Both the position numbers and the translations under genes were made by a program. From the NCBI GenBank assembly GCA_015222795.1, contig JADFVY010000120.1:1-28668 (forward strand): a DNA stretch of 28,668 nt. The letters run 5' to 3'. This stretch comes from Pseudomonadota bacterium. GTDB taxonomy: Bacteria > Pseudomonadota > Alphaproteobacteria > UBA8366 > JADFVY01. Below the pieces are notes generated by a model. That model had not been told where the DNA came from. It searched no databases and saw only the letters and a program-made list of their open reading frames with translations. Position 1 is the stretch's first letter, and each line of letters opens with the position of its first letter. Below, one piece after another: positions 1-8,594 of this stretch.

Positions 1-77
1 CCTGACCAACCTCAAAGCCGCATAGGCCATTCAAACGAGTAAACAATGAACCCTGAAACCTTAAAGCCGACAGACTG

Positions 78-204
78 CTAGTCAGTTCCTAATATCCCGA
101 AGGTCACGTGGTCGCACCAGCGGCCGTTGATCTTCAGATATTCCCGCGCCAATCCTTCTTCTCGGAAGCCGCATTTCAGCGCCAGGCAGCGACCTCAACC
201 CGGT
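78..204 (-). pseudogene. Decayed 3'-terminal fragment of a RimJ-like GNAT gene (second copy of the 3' end of 3017..3619)
   Basis: Minus strand 188->78 translates to CLALKCGFREEGLAREYLKINGRWCDHVTFGILGTD* (TAG at 78-80). This matches the intact gene's CL[PANEASRGLL]LKCGFREEGLAREYLKINGRWCDHVTFGIL. Upstream, RVEVA (190-204) matches RVEAA in another frame, implying a 1-nt frameshift plus a ~27-nt internal deletion. No start codon is linked to this frame. Confidence 0.9.
91..178. repeat. Direct repeat, copy 1 (partner at 3060..3147)
   Basis: Hand alignment at offset 2969: first 38 bp identical, 81/88 overall, mismatches at 129, 132, 152, 153, 159, 162 and 165. Confidence 0.95.
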
Positions 205-363
205 CGCCGCGCGTATATTCACGCGAAATTATTGAATCGCCTCCGAACGAAGCCGTCGCGTCAAACAAGCAGCGAATTCCTTTAAGACGAGCTTTGACAT
301 CCCCTCTCTTCATAAAACGCCCCTCAAGGCGTTTCAGCCCATGACAATCAGGCAAGGCCATTA

Positions 364-386
364 AAGATGCATTAAAAATATTGCTT
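364..386. promoter_or_regulatory. Putative NsrR operator 1, overlapping the nirK -35
   Basis: AAGATGCATTA-A-AAATATTGCTT versus the 11-1-11 NsrR consensus AAGATGYATTT-N-AAATRCATCTT: left half 10/11, right half about 7/11. An nsrR-like gene lies in the same cassette. Confidence 0.6.
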
Positions 387-409
387 TCTATGTCAGGGCA
401 GCATATGAT
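381..409 (+). promoter_or_regulatory. Putative sigma70 promoter of nirK
   Basis: TTGCTT (381-386), 17-nt spacer, TATGAT (404-409), in an AT-rich tract ~125 nt upstream of the nirK ATG. Confidence 0.65.
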
Positions 410-431
410 ACATGTATATATTTTACATCTT
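409..431. promoter_or_regulatory. Putative NsrR operator 2, over the predicted transcription start
   Basis: cATGTAT-atatt-TTACATctt fits the gATGYAT-N5-ATRCATc core. It starts at the last base of the -10 element. Confidence 0.65.
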
Positions 432-535
432 TCAGAATATACCGGAATTCAACCATGTGGCGGCGCCCGGGTTATTGGGTGGCTCCGATCCGGCAGCCGG
501 CTCTTTGTCACCAACTTAACTGGGAGGAATTGCAG

Positions 536-1651
536 ATGCCGAATTTAACGAGAAGGCAGGTTTTGAAAAGCGGGGGCGCCGTGGCGGCCGCTCCGGTTCT
601 GGTCCAGGCAGGGCTTCAGGTCGCTCAGGCCGAAACCACGGACATAAGCAAACTGAGGCGCGTGAAGCAGCAAATGGTTGCTCCGCCAGCCGTGCCCGAA
701 CATGAACAGGTCGCCAGCGGCGGGCCGAAAATCATTGAGGTTCGCCTGGTCGTCGAGGAGAAACAGATCGAAATCGACGGCGATGGCACCAAGATGTGGG
801 CCATGACCTTCAATGGCTCCGTGCCGGCCCCGATGATCGTCTGCCATCAGGACGACTACGTCGAGGTGACCCTGGTCAATCCGGAAAGCAATAACCTGGA
901 GCATAATATTGACTTGCATGCCGCGACCGGATCGCTTGGCGGCGGCGGATTGACCCATGTTACGCCGGGCGAGGAGGTTGTGATCCGCTTCAAGGCGACG
1001 AAAGCCGGCGTTTTCTGTTACCACTGCGCCCCGGGCGGCACGATGATCCCGCTGCACTGTGTCTCGGGCATGGCGGGCACCATCATGGTCCTTCCCCGCA
1101 ACGGCTTGACCGACGCCAACGGAAAATCAATCAAGTACGACAAGGTCTGGCACATCGGCGAGCAGGACTACTACATACCAAGAGACGAGGACGGCAATTT
1201 CAAGTCCTACGAAAGTGTCGGCGACTCAATGTCCAACACACTTGAGGTCATGCGGGATTTCGTCCCCACCCACGTCGTCATCGGCGGCGCCGCCTTCGCC
1301 TATACCGGCGACAACTCGTTGACCGCGAAGGTCGGGGAAACGGTCCTGATCACGCATATGCAGGCCAACAACCCGACCCAGCCGCACCTGATCGGCGGCC
1401 ACGGCGATTATGTCTGGGCGGACGGATCCTTCCAAGACCCTCCGAAAACAGGACTGGAGACTTATTGGGTCGCGGGCGGTTCGGCCGGGGCCATGATGTA
1501 CACCTTCCGCCAACCCGGACTATACGTCTACCTCAACCACAACCTGATCAAGGCCGTAATGGGGGGCGCCGCCGCCCACATCAAGGTCGAAGGCAAGTGG
1601 GACGACGATCTGATGACCCAGGTAAGGAAACCGGGGCCGATCAGCAGTTAA
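536..1651 (+). CDS. nirK: Copper-containing nitrite reductase, Tat-exported, 371 aa
   Basis: RBS GGGAGGA at 522-528 supports the ATG at 536 rather than 455. Twin-arginine signal TRRQVLK...AQA. Motifs: HNIDLH (T1 H123, catalytic D126, T2 H128), YHCAPGGTMIPLHCVSGM (H163, C164, H174, M179), PHLIGGHG (catalytic H284), NHNL (T2 H335). Confidence 0.96.
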   Translation: MPNLTRRQVLKSGGAVAAAPVLVQAGLQVAQAETTDISKLRRVKQQMVAPPAVPEHEQVASGGPKIIEVRLVVEEKQIEIDGDGTKMWAMTFNGSVPAPMIVCHQDDYVEVTLVNPESNNLEHNIDLHAATGSLGGGGLTHVTPGEEVVIRFKATKAGVFCYHCAPGGTMIPLHCVSGMAGTIMVLPRNGLTDANGKSIKYDKVWHIGEQDYYIPRDEDGNFKSYESVGDSMSNTLEVMRDFVPTHVVIGGAAFAYTGDNSLTAKVGETVLITHMQANNPTQPHLIGGHGDYVWADGSFQDPPKTGLETYWVAGGSAGAMMYTFRQPGLYVYLNHNLIKAVMGGAAAHIKVEGKWDDDLMTQVRKPGPISS

Positions 1652-1683
1652 TTCAAACCATGGCTCGCTGATGGAAAGCTCGG

Positions 1684-1731
1684 CAAACAGTCCCCGACAG
1701 CCATTCACCCCCTCCTGTCGGGGACTGTTTG
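1684..1731. repeat. Perfect 17-bp inverted repeat with a 14-nt loop between nirK and sco (terminator/stabiliser-like hairpin)
   Basis: CAAACAGTCCCCGACAG (1684-1700) and CTGTCGGGGACTGTTTG (1715-1731) are exact reverse complements. Confidence 0.9.
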
Positions 1732-1782
1732 AACCGGGAGGCCTTCACGCACGGAAAATATCAACTGATTGAGGAGGCCGCC

Positions 1783-2421
1783 TTGGAAACGAAAGCTGGA
1801 ATATGGCACCCGGTGCTGGCGGCGATTGTCGTCATGGCCCTTAGTCCGGCGGCGAACGGCGGAACAGCGGAGACCGGCAAGAGGGAAGTTCCCACCGTCG
1901 GCAAGCCGATAGCGGGACATATCGGCGGACCGTTCACCCTGGTCGATCACAACGGAGACACCGTTACCGACGCCGATTTCCACGGCCGTTTCATGCTGAT
2001 TTATTTCGGCTATACCTTCTGCCCGGACGTTTGCCCGACGGCGGCAATCATGATGACGCACACGCTGGAGGAACTGGGCGAGCAAGAAGCGAAAGTGACG
2101 CCCATCATCATAAGCATCGACCCCGAGCGCGACCGCCCCGATGGCATGAAGGATTACGTCTCCCATTTCCATCCGCGCATGGTGGGGCTCACCGGCTCGC
2201 CCGAACAGGTCGCGGTGGCGATCGAAGCCTACAAGGTATATGCGGTCAAGGTATTCGAGGAGGGATGGGGCGTGGACGATTATTTCGTCTATCACTCCGA
2301 TGTCATTTATTTCATGGGCCCCGATGGGGAATATCTCGATCATTTCGGCAGCGGCTCCACGCCCAAGGTTATGGCCGCGCGAATGCGGGCGCACATGGGC
2401 GGAAGTCCACCTCGCCCCTAA
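1783..2421 (+). CDS. senC: Sco/SenC/PrrC family copper chaperone, 212 aa
   Basis: GPFTLVDHNG, YFGYTFCPDVCP (CxxxC) and the conserved His in YFVYHSDVIYFMGPDG. Start reassigned to the in-frame TTG at 1783 because GAGGAGG lies at 1771-1777 and the track start (1729) falls inside the hairpin. Hydrophobic N-terminal segment. Confidence 0.92.
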   Translation: METKAGIWHPVLAAIVVMALSPAANGGTAETGKREVPTVGKPIAGHIGGPFTLVDHNGDTVTDADFHGRFMLIYFGYTFCPDVCPTAAIMMTHTLEELGEQEAKVTPIIISIDPERDRPDGMKDYVSHFHPRMVGLTGSPEQVAVAIEAYKVYAVKVFEEGWGVDDYFVYHSDVIYFMGPDGEYLDHFGSGSTPKVMAARMRAHMGGSPPRP

Positions 2422-2888
2422 TTGACGGTGGTTGCGGAGCCGCCGGACCACACGTCGGTGGGGAACGCCTTGATCAGTTGAGGTTTCGGTAGGACAAGAT
2501 CCTTGATGCTGTAGCCATCAAGAACCTCGAGAAAGGCGTTGTGCGCCTGGCGCATGATGCCGGCAAGAACGCACGCGCTAACAATCTGGCAGTTGAAATC
2601 TCCATCGGGCTCGAAACACTCTACTATGGCCATGTCTTTCTCCATGGCGCGAACCACCTCGCCAACGGAAATCGTTGCCGGGTCCCGCCCGATGCGCAGG
2701 CCGCCATTCTTTCCGCGGACGGTTTCGGCGAACCCGTGCTTGCCCAGATCCTGGACCAGTTTCATCAGATGATTGCGCGAGATATCGTATTGCTCGGAGA
2801 TTTCCCTTATCGTCGCGAGCCTTCCATCCTGGATGCTGAGATAAATCAGAACCCTCAGTGCATAATCGCTATAGTTGGTTAAACGCAT
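2418..2888 (-). CDS. nsrR: Rrf2-family NO-sensing repressor NsrR
   Basis: MRLTNYSDYALRVLIYL N-terminus, ISRNHLMK helix, RGKNGGL wing, and three C-terminal Cys (VECF...NCQIVSAC) typical of [4Fe-4S] NsrR. Adjacent to nirK, which has matching boxes. Confidence 0.88.
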   Translation of the reverse strand: MRLTNYSDYALRVLIYLSIQDGRLATIREISEQYDISRNHLMKLVQDLGKHGFAETVRGKNGGLRIGRDPATISVGEVVRAMEKDMAIVECFEPDGDFNCQIVSACVLAGIMRQAHNAFLEVLDGYSIKDLVLPKPQLIKAFPTDVWSGGSATTVN

Positions 2889-2914
2889 TTTTCGCCACGA
2901 ACTCCCCTATTCAA

Positions 2915-2937
2915 AACATGCATGGTAGATATAGCTA
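2915..2937. promoter_or_regulatory. Possible autoregulatory NsrR box upstream of nsrR
   Basis: aacATGCAT-ggtag-ATATAGcta: one perfect ATGCAT half and a degenerate second half. It overlaps a CTATAT (-10-like) on the minus strand at 2929-2934. Confidence 0.4.
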
Positions 2938-3016
2938 TAACCTCGAGAAACTCCAGTGGTTTTTGGGTAAAATCCCCGGCCCCCCGGCTAATACCAAGGC
3001 TCGCTGATAGAGCTTT

Positions 3017-3619
3017 TCAAGTTTGAAGTGAAGCGACTCCGGGGCGCGGGTCGCCATGCAATATCCCGAAGGTCACGTGGTCGCACCAGCGGCCGTTTAT
3101 TTTCAGATATTCCCGCGCCAGGCCTTCCTCGCGAAAGCCGCATTTCAAGAGCAGGCCGCGGCTCGCCTCGTTGGCGGGCAGGCAGGCGGCCTCGACCCTG
3201 TGCAGCTGCAAAACCCCGAAGGAATAATCCAGCACACAGCGGACCGCTTCGGTCATATATCCGTGGCGGGCGCTGGCCGCGCCGACCCAGTAACCCAGGC
3301 TGCCGGTCCGCGCCACGCCCTGGCGCACGTTGGACAGGGTGATTCCGCCCAACATCTCTCTACCGTCACGGCTGAAAATCAGAAACCCGTATCCGGTTTG
3401 CGCGTGCCAGTCTTCCTTGACCTGGGCGCGCCGGCGCTGGAAGGCGGCAATGCTGGCGCCATCGGGCGGCCAGGTCGGCTCCCATGGCTGCAGGAACGCC
3501 TCGCTGGCCCGCCGCAGCGTCACCCAGGCTCGCGCATCCTGGGAAACCGGTGGGCGCAATAACACCCGGGGGCCGGTGAGAACAGTATCCGATACCGCGC
3601 TGCGCAACATCGCCCACAT
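3017..3619 (-). CDS. rimJ: RimJ/RimL-family GNAT N-acetyltransferase
   Basis: FLQPWEPTWP, GGITLSNVRQG, GSLGYWVG, LHRVEAACLPANEASRGLL.KCGF..EG.AR.YLKING.W.DH. Usual position downstream of the M16 peptidase. Confidence 0.88.
   Translation of the reverse strand: MWAMLRSAVSDTVLTGPRVLLRPPVSQDARAWVTLRRASEAFLQPWEPTWPPDGASIAAFQRRRAQVKEDWHAQTGYGFLIFSRDGREMLGGITLSNVRQGVARTGSLGYWVGAASARHGYMTEAVRCVLDYSFGVLQLHRVEAACLPANEASRGLLLKCGFREEGLAREYLKINGRWCDHVTFGILHGDPRPGVASLQT
3060..3147. repeat. Direct repeat, copy 2 (inside the rimJ 3' end)
   Basis: Matches 91..178 at 81/88 nt. Confidence 0.95.
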
Positions 3620-3625
3620 AGTTAT

Positions 3626-4885
3626 TCAGACGGAAAGCCGCTCGGCGAAGCGGTCATAGGGCATCATACGCCCCAACGGCCCAATGGCGGCAAGCGACGG
3701 GCGGCCAGTAAATATCCGCCCCGCCACGCGTCGAACCGCATCCATATCAACTGCGTCGATGTGTGCCACTATCTCATCGATTGGCAAAGGCCGGCCGAAA
3801 ATCAACATCTGTTCGCCAAGCTGCTCGGCTCGCGATCCGGTAGATTCCAGCGACATAAGGGTCGCCGCCTTAAGCTGGTTTCGGGCGCGTCGCACCTCGC
3901 TTTCCTCCAGGCTTCCCGCCAGCCGCTTCACCTCGTCGACCAGCACCGGCATCAACTCGGCTATCTCTTCCTCGCCGGTCCCGGCGTAGATGCCGAACAG
4001 GCCGCAATCTGTATAACAGGAACAATAACTGTGGATCGAATAAGCCAGCCCTCGGCGTTCGCGGACCTCCTGGAACAGCCGTGACGACATGCCACCGCCG
4101 AACAGAACCGACATCACGGTAGAGGCATAAATGTCGGGGTCGTGCATCCCCAGCCCCGGGAACCCGATCGTCAGATGCACCTGTTCCAGTTCGCGGTCTT
4201 CCAGATGCTCGCCGCCGCCGTATGCCGCCGTTTCGTTGCCCAGTGGCCGGCTGTCCGGCAGATCGTTGAACAGATGACGAGCCAGAGTAACCAATTGATC
4301 ATGCTCGATCATTCCGGCCGCCGACAACACCAGACTGCCGGCGCCATAGGCCTGGTCCATATAGCCCATGATGGCCTCGCGCGACATTGTTCGCACCCGT
4401 TCGGCATCGCCGAGCACCGGGCGGCCCATGGGTTGGTCGGGAAAGGCGGTGGCCTGAAAATGGTCGAAAACAACATCGTCCGGCGTATCGTGCGCCTGGC
4501 CGATCTCCTGCAGCACGACACTGCGCTCGCGCGCCAGTTCCTCGGGCTCGAATGTGGAATGCTGCAGAATGTCGGCCAGAATATCGACCGCCAACGGCGC
4601 GTCCTCTTTCAGAACCTTGGCGTAATATGCGGTGTGTTCGCGCGAGGTATAGGCGTTCAAATGGCCGCCGACCTCCTCGATTTCGGCCACAATATCCAGC
4701 GCCGAGCGGCGCTTGGTGCCCTTAAAGGCCATATGCTCCAGCATATGGGCAACGCCGTTGATCTCAACCGGCTCGTTGCGGGTGCCGGCGTCGACGAAGA
4801 CCCCGACCGAGACCGTCTCCACCGCGTCCATCGTGTGGGAAACGATGCGCAGCCCGTTCTCCAGGGTTGTCTGGCGGACGGTCAT
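3626..4885 (-). CDS. M16B-family zinc peptidase (pitrilysin / mitochondrial processing peptidase-like)
   Basis: Inverted zinc motif HMLEH in GVAHMLEHMAFKGT, plus LNAYTSREHTAYY and SSRLFQEVRERRGLAY. Start overlaps the thrC stop by 4 nt. Confidence 0.95.
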   Translation of the reverse strand: MTVRQTTLENGLRIVSHTMDAVETVSVGVFVDAGTRNEPVEINGVAHMLEHMAFKGTKRRSALDIVAEIEEVGGHLNAYTSREHTAYYAKVLKEDAPLAVDILADILQHSTFEPEELARERSVVLQEIGQAHDTPDDVVFDHFQATAFPDQPMGRPVLGDAERVRTMSREAIMGYMDQAYGAGSLVLSAAGMIEHDQLVTLARHLFNDLPDSRPLGNETAAYGGGEHLEDRELEQVHLTIGFPGLGMHDPDIYASTVMSVLFGGGMSSRLFQEVRERRGLAYSIHSYCSCYTDCGLFGIYAGTGEEEIAELMPVLVDEVKRLAGSLEESEVRRARNQLKAATLMSLESTGSRAEQLGEQMLIFGRPLPIDEIVAHIDAVDMDAVRRVAGRIFTGRPSLAAIGPLGRMMPYDRFAERLSV

Positions 4886-6282
4886 GCCTTCACGCCCACG
4901 CGCGTCCGAATATGCGCCATCACGCCCTCGAGGTTATTAGCCATTACGTCGTATCTCTCCTCTCGCTCAAACAGGTCGGCCAGGCGGGGCGGCAGTTGCG
5001 GGCGTATGCCTGTTGCGCGCTCGACCGCCTCGGGGAATTTGGCCGGGTGGGCGGTGGCCATCGAAACCATCGGGATCGCCGGATCGGGGTTCTTTGCACG
5101 CGCCGCGGCAACGCCGATCACGCTATGCGGATCCAGAAGCGCGCCGTTGGCCTCTTGCTCTCCCTTGATGGCAGTCAGCGTCTGTTCGTCGTCGAGGCGA
5201 TGGCCTTCGAACAGTGACTGTATGGCATCCATGCCGCCCTGCGGGATTGTCAGCCGGCCGGTTTCACGAAATTCGGTCATCGCGCTTTTAACAGCTACAC
5301 CCTCGCGGTCGCAGGCGTCGAACAGTAGCCGCTCGAAATTGCTGGAAACCTGAATGTCCATGCTGGGCGAAAGCGACGGCTCGACCCCGCGCGCCTCCAT
5401 CGCCCCGGTTTCGATGAAACGGGTAAGGATGTCGTTGCGGTTGGAGCCGATGACGAACTGCGATATGGGCAAACCCATCTCGCGCGCGGCATAACCGGCA
5501 TAGACATTGCCAAAATTGCCGGTCGGCACGGCGAAATTCACGGGGCGATCCGGCGCGCCAAGAGCCAGGGCGGCGCGGAAATAATAGACGATCTGGGCCA
5601 TGATCCGCGCCCAATTGATCGAATTGACCGCGCCGAGCCGCATTTCCTGGCGAAAACCGGGGTCGCCGAACATTGCCTTCACCATATCCTGGCAGTCGTC
5701 GAAGCTGCCCTCGATGGCGATGTTGTGGACGTTGGCCGAGGGCACGGTCGTCATCTGGCGCCGCTGAACATCGGACACACGGCCATGGGGATGCAGAATG
5801 AAAATATCGATAGCCTCGCGGTCGCGGCAGGCCTCGATTGCGGCCGAACCAGTATCGCCCGAGGTCGCGCCGACGATGGTAATGCGCTCGCCGCGACGGC
5901 CGAGTACATGATCGAACAGCCGTCCCAGCAACTGGAGCGCAACATCCTTGAAGGCCAGCGTCGGGCCGTGGAACAGTTCCATCAGCCAGAGATTGTCGTC
6001 CAGTTGTTTCAGCGGCACGACGGCGGCATGATCGAACCCGGCATAGGCGTCGCGCACAAGACCGGCGAATTCGTCCTCGCCGATCCGTCCGCCCAAAAAC
6101 GGCTGCATGATTCGGATCGCCAGGTCCGCGTATGAAAGGCCGCGCATGGCGCGAATTTCATCGGCCGGGAAATGCGGCCATGTCTCGGGAATATAGAGGC
6201 CCCCGTCCGTGGCCAGTCCAGCCAGCAGAACCTCGTCAAATTCCAGAATCGGGGCCTCGCCCCTGGTGCTTATGTAACGCAC
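4882..6282 (-). CDS. thrC: Threonine synthase
   Basis: MRYISTRG start (GTG), ELFHGPTLAFKD (PLP lysine), GATSGDTGSAA, VNSINWARI, VPTGNFG, TAHPAKF. Confidence 0.97.
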   Translation of the reverse strand: MRYISTRGEAPILEFDEVLLAGLATDGGLYIPETWPHFPADEIRAMRGLSYADLAIRIMQPFLGGRIGEDEFAGLVRDAYAGFDHAAVVPLKQLDDNLWLMELFHGPTLAFKDVALQLLGRLFDHVLGRRGERITIVGATSGDTGSAAIEACRDREAIDIFILHPHGRVSDVQRRQMTTVPSANVHNIAIEGSFDDCQDMVKAMFGDPGFRQEMRLGAVNSINWARIMAQIVYYFRAALALGAPDRPVNFAVPTGNFGNVYAGYAAREMGLPISQFVIGSNRNDILTRFIETGAMEARGVEPSLSPSMDIQVSSNFERLLFDACDREGVAVKSAMTEFRETGRLTIPQGGMDAIQSLFEGHRLDDEQTLTAIKGEQEANGALLDPHSVIGVAAARAKNPDPAIPMVSMATAHPAKFPEAVERATGIRPQLPPRLADLFEREERYDVMANNLEGVMAHIRTRVGVKA

Positions 6283-6314
6283 GGCTCGTTTCGTCCTCTT
6301 AACCCAAGCGCATC

Positions 6315-6343
6315 AAACTAGCGATGCGGCCCGCCGCAAGCAA
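6315..6343 (-). promoter_or_regulatory. Putative internal sigma70 promoter for thrC-M16-rimJ
   Basis: Minus strand reads TTGCTT (6343-6338), 17 nt, TAGTTT (6320-6315), in the 67-bp gap upstream of thrC. Confidence 0.5.
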
Positions 6344-6349
6344 GGCGAC

Positions 6350-7870
6350 TCATGTCATCAGGTAACGCTGGCGCAAATGATCCTTGAAGGCGTCGGCGCC
6401 GAGCGGCTTTCCGGTTGCCTCAATCAGCAACTCGTCCGTCGAGATAAGCGACGCCTTGTTGTGGACGTTGGGCCGCAGCCACGCCATCAGGGGCGCGAAA
6501 TCGCCCTTGGCGACCGATGGCATGATCAGCGCGTCGGCGGTCCGCGCGGCGGCGGCCAGCTGCGCCGCGGCCATCGCGCCCAGGCTGTAGGTCGGAAAAT
6601 AACCAAAGGCGCCGTCCGGCCAGTGGATATCCTGCAGACAGCCCAGCCGGTCATCCGGCGGCCGTATGCCGAGCAGTTCGACCATGCCGTCGCCCCAGGC
6701 CCCGGGAAGATCGGCCACCGCAAGGTCGCCGGCGATCATCGCGCGTTCCAGTCGGGTACGCAGGATGATATGGGCGGGATAGGTGACCTCGTCGGCCTCG
6801 ACGCGGATCAGGCTGGGCTCAACCCTCGTTGCAAGGCGGTACAGATTGGCGGCTGTCCATGCGGGGCCTTCGGCGGCGAAGGCCTGCCCGGCCACCGGCG
6901 CCGCCCATTCGAAGAATTCGGGCGAACGGCAGATTTGCATTTCGATCAACAACGACTGGCTTTCATGCATAACCATGCCGCGCGCGTTGCCAACCGGCTG
7001 GTATCGCCACGCCTTCGGCAGGCCGCGCTCATACATGGCGTGGCCTGATTCATGCAGCACGGCCATCATGGAATCGAGGAAGCCGCCGTCGTGATAGCGG
7101 GTGGTTATGCGGCTGTCCTCCGGCACGCCACCCGAAAAGGGATGCAGGCTTTCGTCGAGCCGAGCACTATCAAAATCGATACCCACGGTCTCGGCCAAGT
7201 GGCGGCAGAGAATGCGCTGGGCGGGGATGGGAAAGGGACCGGTGGGCATAACCGGTTCCGGCTCGCGGGCCTGATGCGCCAGGACGGCGTCGAGAAGTTC
7301 CGGCAGAAAACCTGCATAATCCTCCAGGATGGAAACCACCCGCGCGCTGTCGGCGTCTGGTTCGTACTCGTCCATCAGGGCGTCGTAAGCGGGCCGGCCC
7401 AGCATTTCCGCCTTGGCGGTCCCGGCTTCGCGCGTCAGGGCCAGCACTTCCTCGAGGAAAGGCTGAAGCGCCTTAAAGTCGGAATCCGCCCGCGCGCCGC
7501 GCCATGCCGCCTCGGCCGCCGCGCCAGCGTGGGACCGGGCGGCGACCAGGTCCGCGGGTACAGCGGTCGCATGCAGCCAGGCGCGGTGGATTTCACGCAG
7601 GTTGGCCGATTGCCACCGGTCCAGTTGATCCGCGTTCGCGGCCGCTTCGTCCATCAGATCGCCAACCTGGGGGTCGGTGACCAGTTCGTGCGCCATCGTT
7701 CGCAGCGTGGCCATCTGTTCGGCGCGCGCCGCGGCCCCGCCGGGCGGCATGTTGACGGAAGTATCCCAGCCCAGCACGCCCTCGGCCTCGCCAATCAGTG
7801 CGCGGCGGCGGAAGACTTCCTCCAGCCGCCGATAGGCCCCGCTGATATTGGAGCCGGGGTCAGTCGTCAT
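6350..7870 (-). CDS. M32-family thermostable-type carboxypeptidase
   Basis: HPF, HESGH (HExxH), HESQSL, IRVEADEVTY, GCLQDIHW and GYFPTYSLG motifs. Confidence 0.95.
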   Translation of the reverse strand: MTTDPGSNISGAYRRLEEVFRRRALIGEAEGVLGWDTSVNMPPGGAAARAEQMATLRTMAHELVTDPQVGDLMDEAAANADQLDRWQSANLREIHRAWLHATAVPADLVAARSHAGAAAEAAWRGARADSDFKALQPFLEEVLALTREAGTAKAEMLGRPAYDALMDEYEPDADSARVVSILEDYAGFLPELLDAVLAHQAREPEPVMPTGPFPIPAQRILCRHLAETVGIDFDSARLDESLHPFSGGVPEDSRITTRYHDGGFLDSMMAVLHESGHAMYERGLPKAWRYQPVGNARGMVMHESQSLLIEMQICRSPEFFEWAAPVAGQAFAAEGPAWTAANLYRLATRVEPSLIRVEADEVTYPAHIILRTRLERAMIAGDLAVADLPGAWGDGMVELLGIRPPDDRLGCLQDIHWPDGAFGYFPTYSLGAMAAAQLAAAARTADALIMPSVAKGDFAPLMAWLRPNVHNKASLISTDELLIEATGKPLGADAFKDHLRQRYLMT

Positions 7871-8594
7871 CCGGGCCGCGCCGCCTGGTGTGATAGATCA
7901 CGTAGATAACGAACAGGGCCCCGGCCAGCGAAAACCAGGTGATCGCATAAGTCAGGTGGTTGTTGGGCAAATCTACGTGCCATTCGTTGGGGTCGGGTGT
8001 GAGCCACGGCATAGGCTTACCCGACAGGGCTTTCTCACCGGTGGCGAATACATAGTAGTCCGTGAAGGGCAGAACACCCGCGGCCGCCGACATCCCGGCC
8101 AGATCGATAAAGTACCAATTGTTCTTTTCCGGCTTGTTGTCGGGCGTAAACCATCCCGGCAGGTCCGGAATTCGTACAACGCCGGTGACCTCCACTACGG
8201 CCGGCTCGTCGCCCAGCTCCTCGATGGGGGTTCCGGGCCAGTCTATCGGTACCCAGCCGCGGTTCACGAGCAACGTTGCGCCGCCATTGGCGAGGACCAA
8301 GGGTGTGAATACATTGATACCCGGTATGCCGTTGCGCACCCGATTCAGCAGATGCATTTCGGCTTCATGCATATAGTGTCCGGTTACCGTGACCTTGCGA
8401 TACATCAGATCATCGGCGGAAATACGGGCGTCCAGGAGCAGCGGTATCGCTGGACCGGAATCGCGGATTTGCAATTCCTGGATCAGTTCCATCTTCCACT
8501 GCAGGCGGTGAACCTGCCAATAGCCGAACAGAACGAGGATCGCCACCGCCGGGACGGAGATCAGTGTCGGCCAGAATGTGGGTCGGAATTGCAC
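7860..8594 (-). CDS. surf1: SURF1/Shy1 cytochrome c oxidase assembly protein
   Basis: N-terminal TM helix followed by GYWQ..RL.WK, LLVNRGWVP, and LPNNHLTYAITWF before the C-terminal TM helix. GTG start. Confidence 0.95.
   Translation of the reverse strand: MQFRPTFWPTLISVPAVAILVLFGYWQVHRLQWKMELIQELQIRDSGPAIPLLLDARISADDLMYRKVTVTGHYMHEAEMHLLNRVRNGIPGINVFTPLVLANGGATLLVNRGWVPIDWPGTPIEELGDEPAVVEVTGVVRIPDLPGWFTPDNKPEKNNWYFIDLAGMSAAAGVLPFTDYYVFATGEKALSGKPMPWLTPDPNEWHVDLPNNHLTYAITWFSLAGALFVIYVIYHTRRRGPDDD

Follow-up and report, generated by a model that had tools for sequence, protein, structure and literature searches.

In Escherichia coli, phage 21 and e14 insert in the 3′ part of icd, where the replacement end that they supply differs from the native one mainly at synonymous positions and the native end comes to lie at the far border; both bring an integrase gene of their own and recombine at a defined core. 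Campbell-type integration by a single crossover depends on host recombination only and duplicates the incoming homology, so that one copy is complete and the other truncated. Most known cases concern plasmid integration and constructs made in the laboratory, and to our knowledge no description presents it as a natural route by which small islets repeatedly enter core-gene ends. Here we analyze a contig of 28,668 nucleotides (the window; JADFVY010000120.1, assembly GCA_015222795.1) from an uncultured alphaproteobacterium, in which a cassette of three genes, nirK, sco and nsrR, lies between an intact rimJ-like acetyltransferase gene and a second, displaced copy of the 3′ end of that gene.

Further described systems bear on this locus. 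SbCIccrDE of staphylococci (Firmicutes) is an 18.8-kb island with rimJ/rimL as its target, ccrDE serine recombinases, demonstrated excision and a 19-bp direct repeat; the homologue on the island is a whole gene with 70% nucleotide identity, which may replace the truncated one (PMC10581047). Cis-mobilizable elements (CIMEs) are defined by the att sites of a known ICE or IME family (integrative and conjugative or integrative and mobilizable elements) able to mobilize them (PMC5704250). Homology-facilitated illegitimate recombination in transformation is also mentioned in the literature (PMC8116780).

As with phage 21 and e14, the rimJ-like gene appears to be kept intact by an inserted 3′ end, and its native end lies at the other border, where in this genome the junction is interrupted by a multicopy element that we call X. 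Unlike them, the rimJ islet carries no recombinase, holds three metabolic and regulatory genes only, and has a heavily decayed displaced copy. It resembles SbCIccrDE in that a RimJ/RimL-family acetyltransferase gene is targeted and homologous sequence is apparently brought in, and differs in bringing an allelic 3′ part rather than a whole homologue and in having no recombinase. Like a CIME, it is devoid of integration and transfer genes and keeps flanking repeats, though decayed ones. Unlike a CIME, it has no partner ICE or IME at rimJ in a survey of about 570 rimJ loci (91 genomes of the order, 400 of the class and 80 metagenomic loci), and no short conserved core was found. The architecture is of a known kind, a gene-end-restoring insertion, and its apparently recombinase-free, recurrent form is a variant. 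An earlier annotation of the window made from the sequence alone (the original prediction) knew of no description of rimJ as an insertion site for nirK cargo. We likewise found no paper linking the two, while rimJ/rimL as such is a known island target in staphylococci (PMC10581047).

A nirK cassette between two copies of a rimJ end

The window is one whole contig (C549), beginning at contig position 1, of the metagenome-assembled genome (MAG) G000, which consists of 589 contigs and is 88% complete with 5% contamination. Its sequences occur in metagenomic runs from cold seeps and marine sediment. It was compared with relatives G001, G003, G005 and G006 and with L053, a 3511-nt Logan contig from another sample. 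From the left end the genes are nirK, SCO1/SenC (sco), an Rrf2 regulator gene (nsrR), the rimJ-like GNAT gene, an M16 peptidase gene and thrC.

The window contains one direct-repeat family, at positions 91-191 and 3060-3160, with 88% identity over 101 nt, a spacing of 2969, the same orientation and a longest exact run of 38 nt between the copies. The right copy sits within the intact GNAT gene, and nirK, sco and nsrR lie between the two, so that the bracketing by direct copies of the rimJ 3′ end described in the original prediction is borne out. The left copy encodes 37 residues that are 87-89% identical to RimJ residues 154-190 (tblastn, E about 1e-17 to 1e-20), which rules out a chance match. 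Its homology reaches past 191 to about 224 if a deletion is allowed: codons ~154-190 are well kept (91-191), followed by a trace of codons ~141-148 and then by a junction word (198-224). With nhmmer, the left copy matches rimJ model positions 459-582. The TAG that ends it had been read as its own stop codon; the triplet, at 79-81, belongs instead to X, which is inserted directly after codon D190 and supplies it, and is not inherited from rimJ.

The corresponding copies in G001 and L053 retain rimJ codons ~108-145. The junction GCGTGAATATACG.GCGGC.ACCGGGT is common to G000, G001 and L053, and next to it all three have G-Y-W changed to G-(N/D)-R. Homology of the fragment begins at rimJ nt ~324, and nhmmer finds none 5′ of codon 108, which rules out a whole decayed rimJ paralogue as the left copy. 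The working rimJ genes of the same three sequences are without the native TAA and read a few extra codons into cassette-side DNA, eight in G000 (PGVASLQT).

Empty and occupied sites in relatives

The original prediction proposed that a module of ~3 kb had been inserted and suggested a search for the empty site, which was found. In G003, the closest relative (92.3% nucleotide identity in thrC-M16-rimJ; 99% complete), thrC, the M16 gene and rimJ are followed by a convergent DDAH-like gene and no cassette, and no nirK occurs anywhere in the genome. The site is also empty in G005, G006, two other genera of the family (g2 and g4) and metagenomic loci L055-L057 (75-82% RimJ identity). The sequence that follows rimJ in G003 matches the start of another G000 contig, C44, from its first base at 93-94% identity.

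G001 (84% nucleotide identity) carries nirK-sco-nsrR at the same place, with the second rimJ piece at a contig start; a repeat was considered for this contig start and rejected, as it is not common to other G001 contigs. L053 has the same islet with more left flank and reads from the downstream gene to rimJ. Its fragment continues, after a deletion, into GCGTTAAACCGG.TCGCGGCG, that is, the native TAA followed by G003-type sequence from downstream of rimJ. The predicted order of gene, cargo and displaced 3′ fragment can be read directly in this contig.

Because relatives have empty sites and L053 retains the displaced native end, the cassette is a true insertion at the end of rimJ, which closes the conserved thrC-M16-rimJ block. 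The left copy, in turn, is the displaced native rimJ end, since in L053 it leads on to the native TAA and the downstream sequence of the native locus. Deletions in the fragment differ between G000 and G001/L053, and these lineage-specific losses point to a single ancestral fragment of about 255 nt. One founding event thus copied about 255 nt of rimJ, between codon ~108 and a point just beyond the stop, and the left copy has since decayed independently in each lineage. On this comparative evidence the event took place once, in an ancestor within an uncultured Rhodospirillales-like cold-seep genus. The duplication, about 255 nt of imperfect homology, is not a short att-type core.

Divergence between the working gene and the fragment

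Codon differences were counted from an alignment of working copies and fragments. In G000, the working copy and the fragment differ at nine codons between 158 and 187, and 9/9 are synonymous; in G001, codons 116-142 show nine synonymous and two nonsynonymous differences. The G001 and L053 fragments, by comparison with each other, show nine nonsynonymous differences and one synonymous. Divergence at synonymous sites only implies that the copies diverged while both were functional and that decay began later. One copy must therefore have come from another functional rimJ allele, and the pair is not a fresh duplication.

The rimJ genes of G000 and G003 are 97.2% identical over codons 1-107 and 89.6% identical over codons 108-187 (Fisher p = 2.5e-4); other genome pairs show the opposite trend, with the 3′ part of rimJ more conserved. 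This shift is no more than suggestive of a working gene that joins a native 5′ part to an imported 3′ part (3045-3298, codon ~108 onward). Measured over the 90 nucleotides kept best, the two G000 copies tie in their distance from G003, with six differences each, a comparison that is uninformative alone. In its final 20 retained codons, a short segment, the G000 fragment is the same as G003. In L053 the working copy is G000/G003-like to about codon 175 and G001-like from there on, again over short segments, and the fragment is G001-like, with residues I129 and K138.

The cassette and its flanks also differ in their affinities. Between G001 and L053, sco and nsrR are 91-94% identical at the nucleotide level, whereas rimJ codons 70-192 of L053 are 86-88% identical to G000/G003 and 83% to G001. 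Four-fold-degenerate sites of G000 and G001 are 74-81% identical within the cassette, as against 67-73% in thrC, the M16 gene and rimJ. The disagreement among sco/nsrR and rimJ affinities, mosaic L053 residues and four-fold-site identities indicates that the islet, with its fragment, was exchanged between lineages after their split, by recombination in the flanks.

The same geometry at other genes

No recombinase lies between the copies in G000, G001 or L053, only nirK, sco and nsrR. Since L053 spans the interval from the downstream gene to rimJ and holds three genes only, the islet is without an integrase, as originally noted. None of the about 570 rimJ loci surveyed carries an integrase-bearing element at rimJ. 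Apart from G000 and G001, no second partial rimJ copy occurs in the 91 order and 400 class genomes; double rimJ hits in G181 and G323 were set aside as full-length paralogues on other contigs.

The search for rimJ 3′-end duplications suggested by the original prediction yielded one case beyond the genus, in 1 of the 80 metagenomic loci (L101; Ga0182024_10008021, 5911-8511), from a distant lineage (thrC 47% amino acid identity). There the cargo behind rimJ consists of TIR-domain and Phd/YefM antitoxin genes, and beyond it stands a 300-nt copy of the 3′ part of rimJ with 93% identity. The two copies show 15 synonymous and 0 nonsynonymous differences over 91 codons. A 358-aa gene and a Schlafen/AlbA_2 gene come after this islet, and no integrase is seen in 12.5 kb.

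Self-comparison of the MAG yielded further cases in G000. At one (L139, contig C300, 2617-4728), an OppC-like permease gene is followed by DUF6869 and DUF7674 genes and then by a 116-nt copy of the permease end at 92% identity. Its five differences are all synonymous, and a miniature inverted-repeat transposable element (MITE) abuts the copy and supplies its stop. This cargo is absent from G003, G001, G005 and G006. At another (L140, contig C92, 1078-3490), a GGDEF-like gene lies between an AraC/DJ-1-like regulator gene and an 80-nt copy of that regulator's 3′ end at 96%; the cargo occurs in G003 as well. In G006 (L156, contig C25, 3022-5372) the end of the same permease gene carries 2.2 kb of cargo, comprising a short-chain dehydrogenase (SDR) gene, a TetR-like gene and another gene, flanked by an 81-nt copy of the permease end at 85%. 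Since the cargo at this permease end is not the same in G000 and G006, the site is occupied differently in different species. None of the four other islets of this type contains a recombinase, and no boundary motif is shared among the islets.

Elsewhere in G000 (L141, contig C19, 2286-2747 and 4376-4838), a 464-nt direct repeat at 86% identity has one copy close to the end of a long open frame and the other 2.1 kb downstream; this could represent one more instance of such geometry, or else tandem paralogues.

The role of a dedicated attachment site, which the original prediction had proposed for rimJ, probably does not hold: the rimJ survey contains no recombinase-bearing element, and the same geometry recurs at the OppC-like and AraC-like genes. 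Outside the genus, the nearest NirK proteins are 76-82% identical in amino acids and are encoded in four other gene contexts, one with the same nirK-sco-Rrf2 trio. No gene-end repeats like those of rimJ surround these closest foreign nirK modules, the short repeat pairs at L041 looking like chance, and an exact look-up of this NirK in a contig index returned no record. A further relative, G004, has a nirK of another type (L038, contig C443, 1186-2214; 64% amino acid identity) in another gene context, from which it follows that nirK has entered the genus more than once.

Possible routes of insertion

We favor, at a probability of roughly 0.55, insertion and spread of the islet by homology-driven recombination of the RecA type through a single crossover. 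Host recombination is preferred because five independent islets at three genes are without a recombinase, have no common core and are bounded by long (80-300 nt), imperfect duplications. In this reading the incoming DNA would have comprised the nirK module and rimJ sequence of another allele, starting at codon ~108 and including the gene end. A circular molecule of this kind, with the 3′ part of rimJ joined to the cargo, would integrate by one crossover in rimJ and give the layout of gene, cargo and fragment, using host homologous recombination and no recombinase of its own. The working gene would then consist of a native 5′ and an imported 3′ part and would have lost the native stop, while the native 3′ part would be pushed 3 kb away, still joined to its own stop and the downstream DDAH-like gene. 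Recombination between the direct copies could delete or circularize the islet again, and flanking homology would allow exchange among congeners. In accord with Campbell-type integration, the whole homology segment is directly duplicated, as one complete and one 5′-truncated copy. RecA dependence and the circular intermediate are inferred parts of the proposal. Among the three origins that the original prediction had offered, homology-assisted recombination fits best; a remnant of a larger island and mobilization in trans keep a smaller share of the likelihood.

Several points weigh against this reading. The founding event was not observed, and site-specific integration with a gene-end mimic ends in an identical architecture and likewise in differences at synonymous sites only. 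The lower G000/G003 identity past codon 108 is within the spread of 150-nt windows in thrC and the M16 gene (87-98%). Higher four-fold-site identity in the cassette could reflect codon constraint. The link between C44 and the G000 islet comes from synteny only, and the left side of that islet is unreadable past the repeat at the contig end. Finally, one 745-nt Logan contig (run X4) reads from 2737-3059 into 91-512, as would be expected if the islet were excised as a circle or present in tandem; support for a circle is this one contig, at 4.7x in a patchy sample, and its joint lies in the 38-nt exact repeat, longer than the 31-mer of the assembler, and may be a graph artefact. We did not count the 3059-to-91 joint as evidence of excision.

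A decayed site-specific element is the most serious rival, possible though on balance unlikely. Such a CIME-like element would have carried a mimic of the rimJ 3′ end with a core near codon 108, would later have lost its integrase, and may still be moved in trans by a related element; phage 21 and e14 at icd and SbCIccrDE at rimL are its models. The layout is exactly attL/attR-like with the target gene restored, and a mimic of the gene end would be expected to differ synonymously only, as these copies do. Remnants that keep flanking att sites but have no integrase form a known class (PMC5704250), and rimJ/rimL is documented as the target of an island with an island-borne homologue in staphylococci (PMC10581047). 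The independent rimJ islet in L101 has its boundary only about 14 codons away. Against this, neither the fully delimited L053 islet nor the four other islets hold a recombinase, no integrase-bearing element stands at rimJ in the 91 and 400 genomes and 80 metagenomic loci, the islets are without a common boundary motif, and the closest nirK modules elsewhere occupy four other contexts that lack such a gene-end repeat.

If the 3′ part of rimJ had first been duplicated in tandem within one genome, and the cassette had then entered between the copies as a separate event, direct repeats in the same orientation and the missing mobility gene would be accounted for. We consider this model improbable. 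It needs two rare events at one spot, and many synonymous differences with hardly any nonsynonymous ones imply a long time as separate functional alleles. The working copy, moreover, is without its native stop and has a foreign tail common to three lineages, the affinity of G000 rimJ shifts at the duplication boundary, and none of the about 570 loci belongs to a relative with the rimJ duplication but no cargo.

An assembly artefact joining two strain variants of the rimJ end might be suspected in a MAG of 589 contigs with 5% contamination, given a left copy 90 nt from the contig end and a 38-nt exact word in the repeat. It is very improbable in view of the same structure in G001 and L053, which come from other samples and lineages, the shared junction and the lineage-specific deletions; Logan contigs from independent runs also cover 91-512, 203-954 and 2250-3700. 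Hardly credible is a left copy left over from a separate rimJ paralogue unrelated to the cassette, which the original prediction had named as a refuting condition: GNAT paralogues do exist in these genomes, but at 30-47% as against the 87-89% of the fragment to RimJ, and in L053 the fragment forms one continuous stretch with the native stop of rimJ and the gene downstream, and it is present only where the cassette is.

Beyond the rimJ locus, the islets could conceivably represent an undescribed class, free of recombinases, in which the last 80-300 nt of a core gene act as a portable homology arm, cycling between circle and chromosome depends on RecA only, the target is restored and the islets move among related bacteria. 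We offer this as a doubtful generalization. Its possible footprints are the occurrence of this layout at three genes of a single genome, other cargo at one of these sites in a congener and the further rimJ islet of an unrelated lineage, and its cargo may range from nitrite reduction to TIR/antitoxin defense genes. If such a class is real and general, island finders may have missed many small integrase-less islets at core-gene ends, since what they look for are integrases, tRNA targets and short exact repeats. The present locus is a fully delimited case in which a denitrification step (nirK with a copper chaperone and an NO-sensing regulator) is gained or lost between very close cold-seep relatives, and it illustrates how donor, recipient and crossover points can be read from the scar that a core gene retains. 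In annotation, a displaced gene end can be mistaken for a small gene, and the rimJ-like gene now in use would be a chimera.

Features of the islet

Table 1 Features of the window from its left end to the rimJ-like gene
Feature	Position	Strand	Evidence or remark
End of multicopy element X	1..81	.	Inserted in the displaced rimJ fragment; ends the contig
Displaced, 5′-truncated, decaying rimJ 3′ copy	82..224	-	Repeat, tblastn, nhmmer
nirK upstream region (putative promoter and regulator boxes)	225..535	+	
nirK, copper-containing nitrite reductase, twin-arginine-type leader	536..1651	+	TIGR02376
SCO1/SenC copper chaperone gene, start codon uncertain	1729..2421	+	PF02630, E = 2.9e-47
Rrf2-family regulator gene, NsrR/RirA-like	2418..2888	-	TIGR00738, 123 bits (cutoff 73.3); PF02082
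Spacer, nsrR to the new rimJ stop	2889..3016	.	MITE-like terminal repeat remnant at 2990-3012
Intact RimJ/RimL-like GNAT gene, 200 aa	3017..3619	-	PF13302, E = 1.7e-27

NirK scores 449.7 bits against a TIGR02376 cutoff of 296.3, matches model positions 2-325 of 326 and is 92-93% identical in amino acids to its G001 and L053 counterparts. The region upstream of nirK is weakly conserved across lineages, with 66-80% nucleotide identity to G001 as against 88-96% within nirK. The Rrf2 regulator falls under both equivalog cutoffs, with 132.7 versus 182 bits for NsrR (NF008240) and 143 versus 193 for RirA. The GNAT gene product matches Acetyltransf_3 over its full length and scores 96.5 bits with the RimJ equivalog model (NF008072), under the cutoff of 190; RimJ/RimL-like is the best name for it.

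Repeated elements at the borders

Window positions 1-81 are identical to the starts of two other G000 contigs, C192 (L002) and C266 (L003), which then diverge. In four cold-seep runs they are covered at 28-141x, compared with 0.6-12x in covered bins of the islet, that is, 6-45 times deeper, and one Logan contig carries 1622 nt upstream of them. This stretch, common to other contig starts and deeper than the islet, is therefore where a multicopy element, X, at least 1.6 kb long, ends. Exact and degenerate searches of metagenome and genome collections returned nothing for the X end, X has no match in 40 relatives and no Rfam family, and the body of X is absent from the G000 MAG. The terminal word CCGACAGACTGCTAG occurs at nine places, 8/9 within about 70 nt of a contig end, and falls into at least two subfamilies. 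No inverted copy of the X end is seen, so the two ends are asymmetric.

A MITE-like family with the terminal repeat TAATACCAAGGCTCGCTGATAAAGAC is present at about 35 sites in G000, often as palindromic units of 60-150 nt; its copies often stand at contig ends and seem to break the assembly. The spacer word TAATACCAAGGCTCGCTGATA at 2990-3012 matches this family of about 35 copies. That remnant is specific to G000, and its part of the spacer is unlike G001 and L053. It stands just after the new rimJ stop, and a similar MITE-like word follows the nirK stop at 1655-1675.

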